From an uncultured Chloroflexia bacterium (GTDB lineage: Bacteria; Chloroflexota; Limnocylindria; Limnocylindrales; CSP1-4), in the NCBI GenBank assembly GCA_963775225.1, contig CAVZHW010000002.1:211909-275908 (forward strand): a stretch of DNA of 64,000 nt, in the 5' to 3' direction. Under the pieces are notes generated by a model. The model ran no database searches and was not told the origin of the DNA. It was given only the letters and a program-made list of their open reading frames with translations. The position numbers were made by a program, and so were the translations under genes. How positions within the stretch are numbered: position 1 is the first letter of the stretch; every line of letters begins with the position of its first letter. Below, in pieces: positions 1 to 9,816 of this stretch.

Positions 1-559
1 CCTTGGTCCGGGTGTCCTGGCCACCCGGCCCGCGGACGGTGATGGTGACCGAGTAGTCGCCGTAGGCGGCATAGGTGTGGCTGGGGTTCTGCGCATAGGA
101 CGTCTTGCCATCGCCGAAGTCCCAACTCCAGTGGGTGACGTCGCCACTCGAGAGGTCCTGCCACTTCACCGTCAGCCCGTCGGACTGGATGGTGCCGGTG
201 AAGTTCGCCTGCGGGGCAGCTGGCGGCGTCGGCGTCGGCTCCGACGTGGGCGTGGGCGTCGGCGAGGGGGTCGGTGTCGGTGTCGGTTGCAGCGTGGGCG
301 TCGGCGTCGGCTCTGCGGTCGGGGTCGGCTCGGTGGTCGGAGTTGGCGCTGCCGTCGGTGTTGGTGGGGCGGTCGAAGTCGTTTCATGCGTTGGCTGCAG
401 CGGGGTCGGCAGCACGTTGTTCACTGGGGTCGAGGCAGCAAACGTGTCGCCATCGACTGCCGGCTTTGGTGCCAAGCCGCTGACGGCCAGGAGCGCGACG
501 AACGTAAGGACGACTAACGCCACGATCAGCATGGCGAGAGTCCTGCCTGTGCTACCCAT
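1..559 (-). CDS. Secreted or anchored PKD-domain protein with a Pro/Thr-rich linker; the C-terminal part is cut by the window edge
   Basis: Not in the ORF track because it runs off the window. Reverse translation from ATG at 559 (alternative ATG at 532) gives MGSTGRTLAMLIVALVVLTFVALLAVSG (hydrophobic anchor or signal). This is followed by a (T/P)-rich linker, PTPTAAPTPTTEPTPTAEPTPTPTLQPTPTPTPSPTPTPTSEPTPTPP. Then comes WSWDFGDGKTSYAQNPSHTYAAYGDYSVTITVRGPGGQDT, a canonical PKD motif (WxFGDG..HxY..G.Y.V.L.V). Confidence 0.75.
   Translation of the reverse strand, partial: MGSTGRTLAMLIVALVVLTFVALLAVSGLAPKPAVDGDTFAASTPVNNVLPTPLQPTHETTSTAPPTPTAAPTPTTEPTPTAEPTPTPTLQPTPTPTPSPTPTPTSEPTPTPPAAPQANFTGTIQSDGLTVKWQDLSSGDVTHWSWDFGDGKTSYAQNPSHTYAAYGDYSVTITVRGPGGQDTRTK
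221..370 (-). repeat. Low-complexity GGCGTC/GGTGTC-type microsatellite-like tract encoding the (Thr-Pro)n linker of the PKD protein
   Basis: The plus strand reads ggcgtcggcgtcggctccgacgtgggcgtgggcgtcggcgagggggtcggtgtcggtgtcgg... This translates on the minus strand to TPTPTP-rich sequence. Confidence 0.7.
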
Positions 560-656
560 CCGCGCCCAGCGCTGCTCCTGTCACTGACGAAAATGTACGT
601 CGCGGCCATTGCGGTCACAAGGAATTCCGCGATCGCGGGCGGAGGCGTCGGGACCG

Positions 657-3158
657 TCAGTGAATGTGGTTCACCGTGCCGGCGACAATCGTGTACTGGA
701 GCGGCGTGGCGTCGCTGAACTTGAAATGCCACTTGCCCGGCAGCAGCTCGATGTCCTGCGTGAAGGTATGCCACGACGTCAGCGAGTACTGCGTCGCGTT
801 GCCGCTGTCGGAGTGCACGGCACCGGTCTGGAAGACCACCGGTGTTGAAACGTCCTGGGTGATCTCCACGGAGCTGTAGTTGTACGTCATCCTGAACTTG
901 TAGCTGCCCGGGAACAGCGCGAAGGTCACGTTGCCGGAGCCATCGGTCGTGCCAACCGGGATCCACGATCCACCGCCCTGCTCGACCACTCCCCCCGAGA
1001 GGCCAGCGCCACTGTGGTCGAGCAGGCTTACGGTCGCGTCGACAGTCGCAAAGGTGAAGATCGAGTGAGTCGGCTGGCTGTCGGTCTGCGTCGCCGAGCC
1101 GTTGTGGTAGTCCACGCGGACCTTGATGCTGCCCAGCGCACCGTCGACCAGCAGATATGCCCGGCCAGTGCCATCGGTAGTGCCGAACGGCAGCCATGAG
1201 CCGCCCGGCGCGTAGTCGATCACGCCACCGGACAGCCCACTGGCAGATGCATCGTCCAGGTGGACGATGACCATGCTCTTGGTGTAGGTCTCGCCCGCGC
1301 CCCACGTGAGCGGTAGCACGTAACCACCATCGGCCGGATCGCGGAAGTGGAAGTTGTAGGTGCCGGCGAGCAGATTCATCGTGGGCTGGGTGAACCAGGC
1401 TGAGTCGCCAGAGCCGCCACCGTACGAGAGCGAGCCGCTGTAGTACAGCGTGACCGTGGCCGTGTTCCAGGTCAGGGTCGTGTCCGCATCTGGGATATCG
1501 ACACTGACTTTAGTCTCAGCGGTGCCCTGGTACTCCATCTCGAACGAGTACGTGCCGGGGAACACTTCGGCAGAACTGGTGCCGTCGACGCCGGTCAGGC
1601 CACCCGGGAACCACCAGCTCGTGTAGGTCGAACCAATGCCGTAGCGCGCGTTCCCGCCGGCCAATGGATCACCACCGGCCGTCTCGAGCGCGAGCGTCAA
1701 CTTCCGCGTCTGGAACTGATAGACGGAGTTCACGCCGGCGTCCTGGGTCACCATCTGGGTCGTCCCGTTGAGCTTCATTTCGTTGGTCACGGTCCCCACG
1801 AGACCCGGCAGATCGTAGGCGAGGATCCCGGGCGCCGATGCCTCATCGCCGGTCGAGCCCGGAGCGAACTGCCAGCTGCCGGCCTGATAGCGTGCCGTCC
1901 CCCCATCGATCGGCACGCCACCACTGTCGACCAGGCGCAGGGCGATGAGGCTGCGCGTGTAGGTCGCACCAGGGCCGGCAGCGACCGGCCAGCCGAGCCC
2001 GATCCGGCCCGATGCCCCACCAGTCCCGTCAAGCCGGAAGCGGACCGGGGTGACACCGTCAGAGAAGAGCTCCATCGAGGGCTTGGAGAACGAGGCTGCA
2101 TCGCCGTTGGGCCCGCCAAAAGCAAGCGGTGCTCTGTACTGCAGCGTGACCCTGGTGGTGTAGAAGTTGAAGGTGGTGTCGGAGGTGACGTGCTCCGTCA
2201 CTTGCTGGCTGAGCGTGTGGTCCTTGCCCACCCAGACCGTTACATCGCCGGCCGGCACCGTGCTTTCTCGACAACCGCTGGCGCCGACCGGCCCCACATA
2301 GTGGCTCGAGCCCTCAGCCCACCAGGCCTGGTCACTGTCCAGCACGATGGGAGCGCCGGTGCTGTCGTACGCGCAGACGGTGATCGTCGGGTCCGTCGGG
2401 GTGCTCCAGGTCCCGGAGCTGGCGGACGCGCCGAGACTCGCGCTCGAACTGAACCAGGCTCCCGACGCGGTGACGGGACCCGGATCCCCGGCCGGCAGCA
2501 GGTTGCCCACCAGCGGGATCCGCAACACGACCTGGCCGACCACGCGCACGTCGTTGGCGCTGAAGTCGTCGCCCACGCTGTTGGCGTCGCCCTTGGTCAC
2601 GAAGGATCCATCGGAGTTGACCGTCGCGACCCGGTGCGTGACGACCGAGTTGTCCACTTCCATCGTCAGGATCATGCCCGGCTCGATCTGATCGGGCGGC
2701 CGGGTGATGACGACCAGGTCGCCGGCGCTGATGGTGGGCGTCATGCTCGCCCCCTTGACCACCAGCACGTGGTACCAGCGGTTGTTGATCAGCCCGTAGG
2801 CCACGAAGACCGCGAACACGACCGCCGCGACCAGGGCGGCGTCAAAGGCAAGGCCGACAATTCGCCTGACCAGGCGCAGTGCCCGGCGGCGTCGTGTCAG
2901 TGGCAGTGGGCGTGGTGCGACAGCCTCGACGGCCGCCTGGCCGCGGACGGGACCGTCTACCTCCGCTGAGCGTTCGGCCGCCGACGCGTCGTCCGGGTTG
3001 GCCGGCGGCTCAGGATCGCTGAGGTGCTGCAGCCGGAAACCGAGTGAGAAGAAGGTTGCCATGACGGTCACGCCGAAGATGAGGCCCGCGGCCTGGCCGA
3101 CAAGGCTCGATCCTCGTCGTGCCAAGCTGGGTTTCAACTTCGACTCCGTTGCCGCCAC
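657..3158 (-). CDS. SipW-like type I signal peptidase (S26, Ser/His type) fused to a C-terminal repeat (beta-sandwich-like) ectodomain of about 600 aa
   Basis: This is the ORF 657..3332, trimmed to GTG at 3158, which is preceded by AGGAGA and a 6-nt spacer. The upstream 58 codons overlap the TasA-like gene in another frame. One TM segment (GLIFGVTVMATFFSLGF) and a second hydrophobic stretch are present. S26 motifs seen: VVKGASMTPTISAGDLVVI, VVTHRV, TKGDAN. After the peptidase core there are repeated modules of the type LxDxxGxGLSGGxxxxxxGSWxPxGTTDGxGxxxxxLxPGxYxFxMxY. Confidence 0.8.
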   Translation of the reverse strand: MAATESKLKPSLARRGSSLVGQAAGLIFGVTVMATFFSLGFRLQHLSDPEPPANPDDASAAERSAEVDGPVRGQAAVEAVAPRPLPLTRRRRALRLVRRIVGLAFDAALVAAVVFAVFVAYGLINNRWYHVLVVKGASMTPTISAGDLVVITRPPDQIEPGMILTMEVDNSVVTHRVATVNSDGSFVTKGDANSVGDDFSANDVRVVGQVVLRIPLVGNLLPAGDPGPVTASGAWFSSSASLGASASSGTWSTPTDPTITVCAYDSTGAPIVLDSDQAWWAEGSSHYVGPVGASGCRESTVPAGDVTVWVGKDHTLSQQVTEHVTSDTTFNFYTTRVTLQYRAPLAFGGPNGDAASFSKPSMELFSDGVTPVRFRLDGTGGASGRIGLGWPVAAGPGATYTRSLIALRLVDSGGVPIDGGTARYQAGSWQFAPGSTGDEASAPGILAYDLPGLVGTVTNEMKLNGTTQMVTQDAGVNSVYQFQTRKLTLALETAGGDPLAGGNARYGIGSTYTSWWFPGGLTGVDGTSSAEVFPGTYSFEMEYQGTAETKVSVDIPDADTTLTWNTATVTLYYSGSLSYGGGSGDSAWFTQPTMNLLAGTYNFHFRDPADGGYVLPLTWGAGETYTKSMVIVHLDDASASGLSGGVIDYAPGGSWLPFGTTDGTGRAYLLVDGALGSIKVRVDYHNGSATQTDSQPTHSIFTFATVDATVSLLDHSGAGLSGGVVEQGGGSWIPVGTTDGSGNVTFALFPGSYKFRMTYNYSSVEITQDVSTPVVFQTGAVHSDSGNATQYSLTSWHTFTQDIELLPGKWHFKFSDATPLQYTIVAGTVNHIH

Positions 3159-3240
3159 TGCATGTCTCCTTGAGAGGGAAGACGAATCAAGAGGCTGAGG
3201 ACGGGTGGGCACGCCGTCCTCAGCCGAGGGTACTTGGCTC

Positions 3241-3813
3241 TTACCAGCCCGGGTTCTCGACCTGTGTCGCGTCGACGTGCAGGTTGAAATTGGCGGTCTG
3301 GTTCTCGTAAGCGTTGGTGGTATTCGAGGCAAGCTCGAAGTACACGTTGTAGCAGGCGGTGTAGTTGATCGGCAGGCCGCCGGCGAACGGACCGGGATTC
3401 TGGGTGTTGGTGAAGCTCAGGCTCGTGAGGGCGGCTTCCTGGATCGAGGGGGTGATCTCAGAACCACCGCAGTAGATCTGGTTCACGCGCACCCTGATCT
3501 TGTTGTAGAAGCCGGTCTGGCTCTCCGAGACGAACTCGTCGGTGACGCGGTACTTGACCGGCACCGTCGAGAGTGCGGTGTTGTAAACCTCGAACTCGTA
3601 CGGGCCGGACCAGACGCCGGGCATCAGGTTACTGACGGTGAAGCTGGTGGGATGCGCCTGGACGTCGATGTTGCCGGACGTGGCGGTGACGGCCACGTGA
3701 TCGGAATCACTGAACCACGCGGCGCTGCCGACGGTACCGAAGGCCATGACCGCGAGCATCGCCAGGGCAAAGGCGGCTACCAAGGTTTTTCGCACAGTTA
3801 CTGTCTCCTTCAT
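3241..3813 (-). CDS. TasA/camelysin-like (M73-like) secreted subunit with a SipW-cognate-type signal peptide, paralog 1
   Basis: This is the ORF 3241..3984, trimmed to ATG at 3813 with a GGGGGGAA Shine-Dalgarno-like tract upstream. The N-terminus is MKETVTVRKTLVAAFALAMLAVMAFGTVGSAAWFSDSD..., a hydrophobic signal ending in the AxF(S/T)D-type motif typical of TasA/camelysin family proteins. It is about 55-60% identical by eye to the ORF at 5159..5725. Confidence 0.8.
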   Translation of the reverse strand: MKETVTVRKTLVAAFALAMLAVMAFGTVGSAAWFSDSDHVAVTATSGNIDVQAHPTSFTVSNLMPGVWSGPYEFEVYNTALSTVPVKYRVTDEFVSESQTGFYNKIRVRVNQIYCGGSEITPSIQEAALTSLSFTNTQNPGPFAGGLPINYTACYNVYFELASNTTNAYENQTANFNLHVDATQVENPGW

Positions 3814-4241
3814 TTCCCCCCGCCGGTGACGGCGGCAGACTGCGAAATACGTGTTTGCGCAGTTGCGCGGAGACGATGGTCCAACGCGCAGCGTCCGGAC
3901 GTCATAGCCCACGAGTCCCATGGGGGGCCCAGGCGATAGTCCCAATTCGTGCGTACTGCCCGCCTTGGCCTCGCCCTTGGGCATCTGTCAGCGGCGCGGG
4001 ACTAGTGCGTTGGTACGTGGCAGCCCAAACGGTCAGCGGGGCGACCGTTCCCAGTCGTCGTGGTTGCGGCGATGAGGTGGGGCTGGGCGACGGTTCACGC
4101 TCGCGAGCAGGCTGCGCCTCGGTCGGCGCCGGTGCGGCGTTGGGGTCGGTGTCGACATGGACGTCGAAGTCGGCAGGACCCGCAGGTGAAGCACCTTGGT
4201 CCTGCTGTCCGGGCCGGCCGCTCCGCCGTGCGTCAGAGACG

Positions 4242-5075
4242 TCAGGGAGCCGGAATCGCGCTCCAGGTCGACCCTTCGGCCGACCCTCCGACGGTCAGCA
4301 GGGCGCTGAACCACGCTCCAGACGCGTGGGCCACGGCCGCATCTCCAGTGGGTAGCAGGTTGCCGATGAGAGGGATGCGAAACAGGTACTGCCCGACCAC
4401 ACCGACCGTGTTTCCGCTGAAGTCGTCGCCCACGGAATTGGCGTCGCCCTTGGTGACGAACGTGCCATCCGGGTTGACCTTCTCAACGCGGTGGGTGACG
4501 ACCGAGTTATCCACTTCCATCGTCAGGATCATGCCTGGCTCGATCTGTGCCGGCGGCGGGGTTATGACGATCAGGTCGCCGGCCGTGATGGTCGGATACA
4601 TGCTCCCGCCCTCGACCACGAGCACGTGGTACCAGCGGTTGTTGACCAGCCCGTAGGCGACGAACACGGCGAGCACGACGGCTGCGATCAGGGCCGTGTC
4701 GAGAGCGACGCCTGCCACCCGCCTAGCCAGCCCGAGGGCTTGTCGGCGGCGTGTCAGCGGCGGCCGGGCGGTAATGGCGGTCTCAGGGGGCGAGTCGATG
4801 ACGACAGGCTCGCCCGCAGCGGGCCGCTCCGCATCGGGCCGCTCCGCATCCGGCTCGTTCGCAGTCGCCTCGTTACCCGCCGGGCCGTCCAATCCGGACT
4901 CGTCAGCCGTGTCTTGCGTGGGCGGGGCGATGGTCACGCGCAGCAAATGGACCACGATGGCGAAGAAGGCGGCAACGACCGCCAGGACGACGATGAGCTC
5001 GACCACCTGACCGGCCGGACTCGCACCAGGCCGCTCGAACGTGGACTTGCGGACCGATTTGTTGGCCGCCATCAC
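4242..5075 (-). CDS. SipW-like type I signal peptidase (S26), short paralog
   Basis: Motifs seen: VVEGGSMYPTITAGDLIVI, VVTHRV, TKGDANS, FRIPLIGNLLP. There is an N-terminal TM (VVELIVVLAVVAAFFAIVV) and a second TM before the catalytic Ser. The start is GTG at 5075 or ATG at 5072, behind GGTGGAGA. The peptidase core is clearly paralogous to that of 657..3158. Confidence 0.85.
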   Translation of the reverse strand: MMAANKSVRKSTFERPGASPAGQVVELIVVLAVVAAFFAIVVHLLRVTIAPPTQDTADESGLDGPAGNEATANEPDAERPDAERPAAGEPVVIDSPPETAITARPPLTRRRQALGLARRVAGVALDTALIAAVVLAVFVAYGLVNNRWYHVLVVEGGSMYPTITAGDLIVITPPPAQIEPGMILTMEVDNSVVTHRVEKVNPDGTFVTKGDANSVGDDFSGNTVGVVGQYLFRIPLIGNLLPTGDAAVAHASGAWFSALLTVGGSAEGSTWSAIPAP

Positions 5076-5158
5076 GGTATCTCCACCTAGAGAAAGAAAG
5101 TCGCTCGGTTGAGGATGGACGCGCTGCGCCCATCCTCAGCCCTTCGATATTGGCTGTC

Positions 5159-5725
5159 TTACTGAGCCCAGCCCGGGTTCTCGAGCTGAGTCGCGTCGAC
5201 ATCCAAATTGAAGTGAGCGGTCTGGCTCTGGAACGTGTTCGGTGTGGCGTCCAAAAGCTTGAAGTACAGGTTGTAGCACGCGGTGGTGTTGATCGGAAGG
5301 CCCGTCGTGAACAACGTTGGCCCATTCGCGTTGGTGAAGACGAGGTTCTCAAGGAGACCTTGGTAGGTAGCGGGCGTGATTTCTGGACCATTGACGCCGC
5401 AGTACCACTGGTTGACCTTGACCAAGATTTGGTCGTAGAAACCAGCAACGGTCTGCGAGACGAACTCGTCCATCACTCGATACTTCACCGGGACCGTGGA
5501 ATCGGGCTCGTTGTGGATCTGGACCATGTATGCATCCGTCCACACGCCCGGCATCAGGTTGCTGACAGTGAAGTCGGTCGGATCGGCCGTGACATGGACC
5601 TTGCCAGACGTGGCGGTGACGGCCACGGTGTCAGAGCTGGTGAACCATGCGGCGCTGCCAATGGCGCCGTAGGCCATCACCGCGGTCAGGGCAAGAGCAA
5701 AAACGAATACCAGGGGCTTACGCAC
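5159..5725 (-). CDS. TasA/camelysin-like secreted subunit, paralog 2
   Basis: MRKPLVFVFALALTAVMAYGAIGSAAWFTSSDTVAVTATSGKVHV... The start is GTG, preceded by AAGGAG. It shares with paralog 1 the blocks FTVSNLMPGVW, TVPVKYRV.DEFVS, GLPIN.TACYN.YF and DATQ.ENPGW, plus two conserved Cys. Confidence 0.85.
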   Translation of the reverse strand: MRKPLVFVFALALTAVMAYGAIGSAAWFTSSDTVAVTATSGKVHVTADPTDFTVSNLMPGVWTDAYMVQIHNEPDSTVPVKYRVMDEFVSQTVAGFYDQILVKVNQWYCGVNGPEITPATYQGLLENLVFTNANGPTLFTTGLPINTTACYNLYFKLLDATPNTFQSQTAHFNLDVDATQLENPGWAQ

Positions 5726-6114
5726 GATTAGTTACTCCTTGACTTGGCCGCCGGGCACGGCGGCGTGACCGAGACTGCCTGTGCCATCCCGGAGACAGGC
5801 GTCAAGAACGCTAGGCAATAGACCATCCCCTCCCACTGCGAGATCGCGTGCAGCGCTCGTTACGCGGCTGCGCCCGCTGCAGCCTTCCTGTTCTCCCAGG
5901 GCACTCGTCGTGCGGGCCTTCGAGCACCGGTGCCGCGGCCGTTAGTACTAGTCAGGGCCAGTACGAAAGGCATGTGCCGGATGGACCCCGGGGTGGGCCA
6001 AAGGGCCCTCCAGCGCCTTGGGTGGGACGGTCGCTGTCGCGTCTAAACTGCGTTGTTGTGAACGAATCGGGCTCGACGGCAAGGATCGCGGGGGTCGTCG
6101 AACGTGGTGCGCGG

Positions 6115-9816
<3,702 letters not shown>

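Follow-up and report, generated by a model that had tools for sequence, protein, structure and literature searches.

A tandemly duplicated TasA-type subunit and SipW-like signal peptidase locus in an uncultured Chloroflexia bacterium, with a peptidase tail that resembles the subunit arm

INTRODUCTION

Donor-strand fibres of the TasA type are increasingly recognised as a principle by which biofilm matrices are built across domains. To our knowledge, Bacillus is the only case in which it is known how such a fibre starts and how it is fixed to the cell, namely via TapA and CapP. In B. subtilis the donor strand of TasA consists of the first 11 mature residues, and the similar N-terminus of TapA nucleates fibres (PMC9674648, PMC10151520). 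The signal peptidase SipW of the same organism has a second function, located in the last 20 residues of its C-terminus, which face the cytoplasm (PMC8767453). In B. cereus, two TasA paralogues occur together with an assembly factor, CapP, that is processed by SipW (PMC13082335). TasA homologues with co-localised genes encoding signal peptidase I (SPase I) and tip, minor-subunit and anchor proteins have been reported across bacteria and archaea, including Chloroflexota and Actinomycetota (PMC9245690; bioRxiv 10.64898/2026.01.04.697558). Donor-strand complementation is the predicted way in which the tip, minor-subunit and anchor proteins enter AbpX fibres, and in Anaerolinea an SPase I is fused to DUF5305 (bioRxiv 10.64898/2026.01.04.697558). 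Here we describe a locus at the left end of a 64,000-nucleotide (nt) stretch of DNA from an uncultured Chloroflexia bacterium (the window; assembly GCA_963775225.1, contig CAVZHW010000002.1, positions 211,909 to 275,908), in which a TasA-like subunit gene followed by a SipW-like peptidase gene forms a tandemly duplicated unit. Past the catalytic domain both peptidases carry a tail that resembles the cleavage site and the N-terminal arm of the subunits, and in one of them the tail leads into a large passenger domain.

The B. subtilis tapA-sipW-tasA operon (5OF1, 8AUR) shares with this locus homologous subunits, a SipW-dependent signal peptide, a dedicated endoplasmic reticulum (ER)-type Ser/His/Asp peptidase encoded in the operon and an accessory element that mimics the donor strand, which is TapA there and would be the peptidase tail here. 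In the window, however, the subunit gene comes first and the peptidase gene second, the unit is duplicated, no TapA homologue is present, and the subunits are about 100 residues shorter than B. subtilis TasA and have two conserved cysteines. Whereas the C-terminal segment of B. subtilis SipW is cytoplasmic (PMC8767453), the peptidases described here have no C-terminal transmembrane (TM) helix and their tail is predicted to lie outside. The B. cereus sipW-tasA/calY locus likewise holds two diverged TasA paralogues, and CapP, which is processed by SipW and controls polymerisation and surface anchoring (PMC13082335), may be likened to the accessory element here. One peptidase serves both paralogues in B. 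cereus, whereas each paralogue has its own in the window, and CapP has a gene of its own and shows no sequence relationship to the passenger. The archaeal and bacterial AbpA, AbpX and Tafi loci resemble the window in their co-localised SPase I (TIGR02228), in accessory proteins predicted to act by donor-strand complementation and in having Chloroflexota hosts. The AbpX-linked SPase I has been described with ten TM helices, as opposed to the pair of N-terminal hydrophobic segments found here, and the passenger, unlike that of the Anaerolinea fusion, is not DUF5305. Chaperone-usher pili (Fim/Pap) provide a mechanistic analogy only: they assemble by donor-strand exchange, use a transient strand donor that is not a subunit and are capped by a tip adhesin, and FimF and FimG are among the top structural matches of our subunit model. 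They share no homology with the locus, which has no usher or periplasmic chaperone; the envelope is another one, and the strand donor proposed here is a signal peptidase.

The general kind of locus, with TasA-superfamily subunits and a dedicated ER-type signal peptidase, is already known and has been reported bioinformatically in Chloroflexota. A preliminary description of this DNA, drawn up from its letters, had called the system uncharacterised; this stands for the present lineage, but not for TasA-superfamily loci with a dedicated SPase I, which had been described before (PMC9245690; bioRxiv 10.64898/2026.01.04.697558). In the open-access literature that we searched, we found no description of a peptidase that mimics a donor strand and cleavage site, of the loss of its C-terminal TM helix or of the recurrent passengers, and an earlier description elsewhere is possible.

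RESULTS AND DISCUSSION

The small proteins are homologous to TasA

All five minus-strand open reading frames (ORFs) that the preliminary description had listed, two TasA-like, two SipW-like and one containing a PKD domain, were found where it had placed them (Table 1), and its family assignments were checked with hidden Markov models (HMMs); the lack of significant matches to the S26 or TasA/camelysin families, which it had named as a refuting result, did not occur. TasA-like 1 scored above the cutoffs of both Peptidase_M73 (PF12389; 28.4 bits, cutoff 22.5) and the SipW-dependent signal peptide model TIGR04088 (21 bits, cutoff 19). TasA-like 2 has the same GSAAWF motif as TasA-like 1 and reached 222 bits against an HMM of the family. 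When a profile of 60 family sequences was compared with the PDB, the only significant matches were to B. subtilis TasA (5OF1/8AUR, E 7e-8), and they spanned the SGTLDL, NLKPG and C-terminal ATQ motifs; a PDB search with the single sequence of subunit 1 returned noise only. The AlphaFold2 (AF2) monomer model of subunit 1, with a predicted local distance difference test (pLDDT) score of 87.8, has an all-beta body (a beta-sandwich) and a disordered N-terminal arm at residues 25-37. A Foldseek search with this model gave weak matches, with AbpA (7UEG; probability 0.98, template modelling score 0.33), FimF/G and CanA among the best. We do not take these matches as proof of the fold, and the link of the subunits to TasA rests on the sequence profiles.

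The cleavage site of the subunits was placed by alignment to the known TasA site TWA/AFND (a slash marks the cleaved bond), and the pre-proteins read ...G-S-[AG]-A/W-F-[ST]-D-... around it. Mature subunits of about 17.5 kDa and acidic composition are thus predicted, and their most conserved segments are the N-terminal arm and a C-terminal TQxENPGW strand. By profile and motif, both subunits are shown to be homologous to B. subtilis TasA and to carry SipW-type signal peptides. They are very probably secreted TasA-type subunits with dedicated peptidases of their own, and judging from their sequences it is fairly likely that they form donor-strand fibres. Two cysteines (C109 and C148 of subunit 1) and the C-terminal TQxENPGW are invariant in the subfamily, and both features are missing from B. 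subtilis TasA; these residues hint that a disulfide stabilises the body and that the C-terminus forms an interface strand. As for the start of TasA-like 1, the codon GTG 3795 lies 8 nt after an AAGGAGA Shine-Dalgarno sequence, mirrors the arrangement of TasA-like 2 and agrees with the public gene call (P0019, 184 amino acids (aa)), while ATG 3813 would add 6 aa; GTG 3795 is the more likely start.

Both peptidases belong to the ER type

Both SipW-like proteins exceeded the cutoff (51.85 bits) of the archaeal/ER-type signal peptidase I model TIGR02228, SipW2 with 71.8 bits and SipW1 with 58.5 bits. Alignment with human SEC11A/C pointed to Ser138 (GASM), His175 (THRV) and Asp191 (GDAN) of SipW1 as catalytic residues, and their spacings of 37 and 16 residues are near those of B. 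subtilis SipW (Ser47/His87/Asp106; PMC8767453). As far as conserved motifs go, both peptidases are shown to bear the Ser/His/Asp signature of Sec11/SipW enzymes and not a Ser-Lys dyad. Against the Bacillus SipW equivalog NF046067 they scored 39.2 and 31.5 bits, far under its cutoff of 190 bits; by these scores they are the same type of enzyme as Bacillus SipW and not its orthologues. The earlier reading of SipW-like 1 as a peptidase is right for the first ~232 aa, but the 833 aa also include a fused domain that had been overlooked. No hydrophobic segment was found after the catalytic domain of either protein (maximum 19-residue Kyte-Doolittle mean 0.62 and 1.23). At the other end, the usual Arg-flanked membrane helix is preceded by an additional hydrophobic helix at the N-terminus and by an acidic linker of 45-60 aa that is rich in Pro (2790-3158, 4700-5075), and this N-terminal region is poorly conserved between the paralogues.

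The peptidase tail copies the cleavage site and arm of the subunits

An exhaustive HMM search with a seven-sequence profile returned 623 representative clusters of the family at E <= 1e-3; word-index homologue searches had found only a few relatives (8 and 29 proteins). We compared 20 loci, from Chloroflexia, Anaerolineaceae, Limnocylindria, Acidimicrobiia, Actinomycetes, Acidobacteriota, Saccharibacteria and Christensenellaceae. Among the roughly 24 distinct peptidases that they encode, 16 have a [ST]-G-A-W-[FYHVL] tail and no C-terminal TM helix. The tail stands 15-20 residues past the last catalytic-domain motif (IPLxGxL) and is followed by about 15 residues and, often, G-[ST]-W. The resulting pattern, S-G-A/W-F-x15-G-[ST]-W, copies the cleavage site and the first ~20 mature residues of the subunits, with cleavage-like residues at -3 (S/T/V/I), -2 (G/A), -1 (A) and +1 (W/F).

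An HMM of the 25-residue subunit arm was run against the 1591 ORFs of the loci, and peptidase tails made up 8 of its top 9 non-subunit matches. The tail of SipW1 was the best of them (12.6 bits over 19 residues), and the few remaining matches are genuine SipW-type signal peptides. When the 16 tails were aligned with 45 arms by hhalign, the probability was 96.9% and the score 36.4, for motif windows that had been picked by regular expression, which leaves the controls with a fixed core as the only unbiased ones. With the core fixed and the downstream columns shuffled, the score fell to 24.8 +/- 1.7 (maximum 29.3) and the observed value was reached in none of 100 shuffles; the 14 downstream columns alone scored 10.8, compared with 3.8 +/- 0.8 in the shuffles (again 0/100). 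Therefore, the mimicry covers the region that corresponds to the donor strand and the SG-motif linker of TasA (PMC9674648). With no TM helix after the catalytic domain, this tail would stay outside the membrane. We also considered the AWF tail as a by-product of passenger fusion and rejected this, since the same tail is present in the passenger-less SipW1 of the related locus L004 and in both SipW2 copies. An RTX/PKD protein encoded in L004 has a signal peptide of the same kind, ...ISASGA/WFSSD.

A large passenger is fused to SipW1

A Pfam search with the passenger of SipW1 found no family, which rules out DUF5305, the domain fused to SPase I in Anaerolinea, as its identity. The AF2 model of the passenger (pLDDT above 90) is a string of beta-sandwich domains, and Foldseek matched it to the base of the grappling-hook protein GhpA (5.5e-11), to the B. 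anthracis TIE protein and to the pilins and adhesins BcpA, PitA, SpaC and RrgB. Homologues of the passenger (P0003-P0006, P0010) are free-standing proteins of 600-700 aa with a Sec signal peptide of their own, and no SipW lies near the free-standing homologue at locus L002. The peptidase of the window, together with its tail, replaces this signal peptide exactly: the sequence reads ...SSGTWSTPTDP/TITVCAYDSTG, with the slash at the junction, compared with ...ASA/VPTGTIAVCVTDSTG in the free-standing proteins, and the reading frame is unbroken across the fusion. The SipW1 of L004 is 256 aa long and has no passenger. Elsewhere the same motif is followed by other passengers, namely PT-/PE-rich linkers (L008, L009, L024), a Cys-containing domain of ~100 aa (L013, L017) and a domain of ~300 aa (L023). 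Between the window and a further related contig, L007 (7799-9151), the passenger is 80-88% identical, the subunits ~57% and the N-terminus of the peptidase ~36%; this uneven divergence could reflect strong constraint on the passenger or recent exchange between lineages.

A model for fibre assembly and its alternatives

On balance, we lean slightly towards the following reading, taken as a whole. The locus would be a TasA-superfamily surface-fibre locus, built from the tandemly duplicated unit of subunit and ER-type (SipW-like) peptidase. Sec would export the subunits, and the neighbouring peptidase would cleave them after ...S-A-A and so expose the W-F-[ST]-D... arm; they would polymerise by donor-strand exchange, with the freed arm of one subunit entering the next, as in TasA. 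The two-component fibre of the preliminary description would be a heteropolymer of the two subunits and is a conjecture. The tail of the peptidase would act as a built-in donor strand, like the N-terminus of TapA. In a tethered version of the model the tail would nucleate the fibre and anchor it at the membrane, where successive subunits may displace it; in a self-cleaved version the peptidase would cut its own SGA/WF site and release a nucleator peptide. If SipW1 cleaved itself, the Ig-like stalk would be set free with a donor strand at its N-terminus, and since this stalk has no TasA-type acceptor groove it would serve as a tip or adhesin that caps one fibre end. A structural role for the tail, suggested by its likeness to the arm, is conceivable though short of an even chance. 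More tentative is the proposal that throughout this widespread subfamily the dedicated peptidase doubles as an assembly factor and that passengers self-cleaved at SGA/WF are installed as fibre tips.

Several observations weigh against this model. The earlier assignment of both subunits to the TasA family was borne out for TasA-like 1 by itself, whereas TasA-like 2, taken alone, stays below both curated cutoffs (13.6 bits for PF12389 and 14.6 bits for TIGR04088) but is 61% identical to TasA-like 1. None of the Foldseek matches of the subunit model reached E <= 1e-3, and B. subtilis TasA was outside the top 50. The tail is not obligatory, as about one third of the family peptidases are without it; this minority has a classical C-terminal TM helix (L004 14063-14815, L019) or ends soon after the catalytic domain. 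The two tails of the window have no acidic residue at arm position 4, where most subunits and several other tails do. The choice of the hhalign windows by regular expression has been mentioned above. Topology predictions from the charge distribution around the N-terminal hydrophobic segments of the peptidases contradict each other, and AF2 modelled the peptidase module poorly. Finally, fibre formation, the cleavage sites and contact between tail and groove are things that we infer.

The same genes could make up an ordinary duplicated TasA/SipW operon, in which the tail is an extension particular to the lineage (such as a spacer or a segment that interacts with the wall), the peptidase helices serve as export signal and anchor, the fusion is neutral or merely convenient, and the Ig-like stalk remains tethered to the membrane and never enters the fibre. 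The family members without any tail would fit such an operon, as would the passenger homologues that are secreted independently without a WF arm (the one at L002 with no SipW in its vicinity) and the close relative L004, which has the same SipW1 without a passenger. A neutral spacer, however, would not be expected to keep its motif at a fixed position across phyla, to resemble the subunit arm beyond the four-residue core or to retain small residues at positions -1 and -3 of a signal peptidase site, as the tail does, and we regard the ordinary operon as unlikely, though deserving of serious attention. The tail copies the residues of the cleavage site as well as those of the arm, and it lies on the catalytic-domain side of the membrane with no TM helix after that domain; both features would also suit a pseudo-substrate that occupies the peptidase's own active site, as an autoinhibitor or a self-cleaved pro-segment, and times the processing of subunits with no structural role in the fibre. 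About six residues would suffice for that purpose, whereas the likeness runs for at least 14 residues downstream of the scissile bond, through the donor-strand and linker region of TasA (PMC9674648), and autoinhibition alone hardly explains large passengers behind the motif, which makes a pure pseudo-substrate improbable.

A reading of the small proteins as secreted enzymes of the camelysin type (M73) or as antimicrobials, and not as fibre subunits, is suggested by the name of the matching Pfam family (Peptidase_M73, camelysin) and by the first description of TasA as an antimicrobial spore component (PMC9674648). Direct reading of the 158-162-aa mature proteins, however, found no HExxH or other metal-site motif, their most conserved segments are interface elements (the N-terminal arm and the TQxENPGW strand), and in the current literature TasA and CalY count as subunits of donor-strand fibres (PMC9674648, PMC13082335); we consider an enzymatic or antimicrobial identity very unlikely. 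Least credible of all is an assembly artefact in which a 1-nt indel joins two genes into the 833-aa ORF. It could appeal to the related contig L001, which is frameshifted by 1 nt exactly at the junction, right after AAWF. But L001 is a noisy long-read assembly in which metH is split and the C-terminus of TasA2 is garbled, and its passenger ORF has no signal peptide of its own, whereas metH is intact in the window and the independent SPAdes/Illumina contig L007 has the same in-frame fusion, with a passenger about 85% identical to that of the window. The fusion is real.

This locus and the tails of these 16 peptidases from several phyla suggest a solution different from that of Bacillus, in which the signal peptidase itself carries a copy of the assembly strand, sometimes with an adhesin-like domain of large size behind it. 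If the assembly model holds, it would account for fibre nucleation in the many lineages without TapA, and a ...GAWF... tail after the catalytic domain would become a sequence rule for finding fibre tips and anchors in metagenomes. It would also mean that the roles of TapA and of an anchor can be united in one protein with a modular 'plug-in' site for adhesins, that secretion, processing and fibre initiation can be coupled without chaperone or sortase in monoderm-type bacteria, and that a compact two-gene system is available for engineering fibres of protein whose end-caps can be programmed. Should the tail play no such part, the locus simply adds another uncharacterised TasA/SipW operon, from an uncultured soil member of the Chloroflexota.

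The unit was duplicated before the split from the closest relative

The preliminary description had held that the whole cassette was duplicated as a unit, and this is upheld. The spacers between subunit and peptidase genes measure 83 nt (5076-5158) and 82 nt (3159-3240), as had been reported, they share a hairpin, and at the DNA level the cassettes are collinear direct repeats of 72-81% identity (D1, D2, D4, D5) and ~68% overall, far above chance; because of these three features we take the cassette to have been duplicated as one piece. The two subunits are 61% identical (114/186, E 2e-83), close to the 55-60% estimated earlier, and the paralogous peptidase modules 56% identical over 272 aa. 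Among the species-representative genomes, the closest locus is L004/L006 from the metagenome-assembled genome (MAG) 'uncultured Chloroflexia bacterium MFD05442.bin.1.98', with 83% identity in subunit 1. With a GC content of 69%, the window most likely stems from a soil member of the Chloroflexota. Between the window and L004, TasA1 is 83% and TasA2 66% identical, while the paralogues are 61-62% identical to each other. Orthologous copies are therefore closer than paralogues, and by this comparison the duplication as a unit predates the split from the closest relative, a Chloroflexia MAG.

The synteny survey that had been suggested bears out the arrangement: in 19 of the 20 loci a SipW-type gene follows immediately after the subunit gene, and the two-gene unit is therefore a conserved module. 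The tandem double unit beside metH is also found in L001 and L003-L006, and in L007, where metH is out of view. Relatives have extra modules between SipW1 and the PKD gene (L004 13409-15961, L001 10190-14415), comprising a third, divergent TasA-like gene whose signal reads GAYFTD, a SipW that ends in a classical TM helix at its C-terminal side and an RTX/PKD protein; L001 further adds a protein of 379 aa whose N-terminus is TasA-like, as well as a fourth SipW. All of these extra modules are missing from the window, and the locus is a hot spot where cassettes are gained and lost. L001 (ENA ERZ25039495, contig_31154) is a nanopore long-read assembly with several frameshifts, which split metH, garble the C-terminus of TasA2 and an S26 gene and fall at the junction of SipW1 and passenger, and its gene calls should not be trusted for the presence or absence of fusions.

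Table 1. Features of the locus, in coordinates of the window (a slash marks a predicted or mimicked cleavage site)
Feature	Coordinates	Strand	Description
TasA-like subunit 2	5159..5725	-	188 aa; signal peptide ...YGAIGSAA/WFTSSD; predicted mature protein 162 aa, isoelectric point 4.3, 2 Cys
RNA hairpin in 83-nt spacer after subunit gene 2	5110..5138	-	GC-rich, -34 kcal/mol, z = -3.5
SipW-like 2 ORF	4242-5075	-	277 aa
SipW2 peptidase module	4320..5075	-	Two N-terminal hydrophobic helices with acidic linker between them, then ER-type catalytic domain (GGSM...THRV...GDAN)
SipW2 tail	4245..4319	-	ASGA/WFSALLTVGGSAEGSTWSAIPAP; apparent mimic of cleavage site and N-terminal arm; no TM helix
Pseudogene remnant in inter-cassette gap	4136..4239	-	End of PKD domain (SLTHGGAAGPDSRTKVLHLRVLPTS), then PT-linker-like repeat; dead frame, directly after SipW2 stop codon
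TasA-like subunit 1	3241..3795	-	184 aa; signal peptide ...FGTVGSAA/WFSDSD; predicted mature protein 158 aa, isoelectric point 4.4, 2 Cys
RNA hairpin in 82-nt spacer after subunit gene 1	3193..3225	-	GC-rich, -35.2 kcal/mol, z = -4.3
SipW-like 1 ORF	657-3158	-	833 aa, three times signal-peptidase size
SipW1 peptidase module	2463..3158	-	aa 1-232; inferred catalytic Ser138, His175, Asp191
SipW1 tail/linker	2397..2462	-	aa 233-254, GA/WFSSSASLGASASSGTWSTP; apparent mimic of donor-strand arm and cleavage site, joining peptidase to passenger
Passenger domain	657..2387	-	aa 258-833, ~580 aa; about six tandem Ig-like/CnaB-like beta-sandwich domains
PT-linker/PKD protein	1..559	-	N-terminal membrane anchor; cut by window edge

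Spacer hairpins, PKD elements and metH

All six spacers of the window, L004 and L007 have retained the hairpin, and 6 of its 11 pairs show changes on both sides (compensatory). An alignment of eight spacers that included those of the distant loci L008 and L009 yielded no consensus structure, whereas the three close genomes alone gave one. The hairpins are not classical terminators, because they have no T-run; a scan for sigma-70 promoter and intrinsic-terminator consensus sequences found nothing relevant, and a search of positions 1-6500 against Rfam found no known RNA family. The hairpin is probably an attenuator or a stabiliser of mRNA 3' ends that sets a high ratio of subunit to peptidase. 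In the assembly model it would attenuate or stabilise the transcript so that the subunit is made in excess over the peptidase.

The PKD/PT-linker protein that had been placed at the left edge was confirmed by its matches (2-559) to PF18911 (58.1 bits, cutoff 27, E 9e-16) and PF00801 (48 bits, cutoff 23.5); its orthologue in L004 has 251 aa and two PKD domains. The inter-cassette gap of 428 nt in the preliminary description exists and has that length if TasA-like 1 starts at ATG 3813, but is 446 nt long with the likelier GTG 3795, and the remnant of a PKD/PT gene inside it had been overlooked. By tblastn, 15/25 residues of the remnant are identical to those of PKD proteins from L004 (E 1e-7, for a small search), and the PT-repeat family D3 includes positions 4136-4172. 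The gap of L004 has no such remnant. The upstream cassette therefore once had a PKD gene of its own, which was later lost by deletion.

The metH gene (B12-dependent methionine synthase; 5848-9816 on the plus strand) is divergently oriented and is the conserved upstream neighbour of the locus in the window, L001 and L004; its listed ORF (1322 aa) opens ~90 codons upstream of the likely true start.

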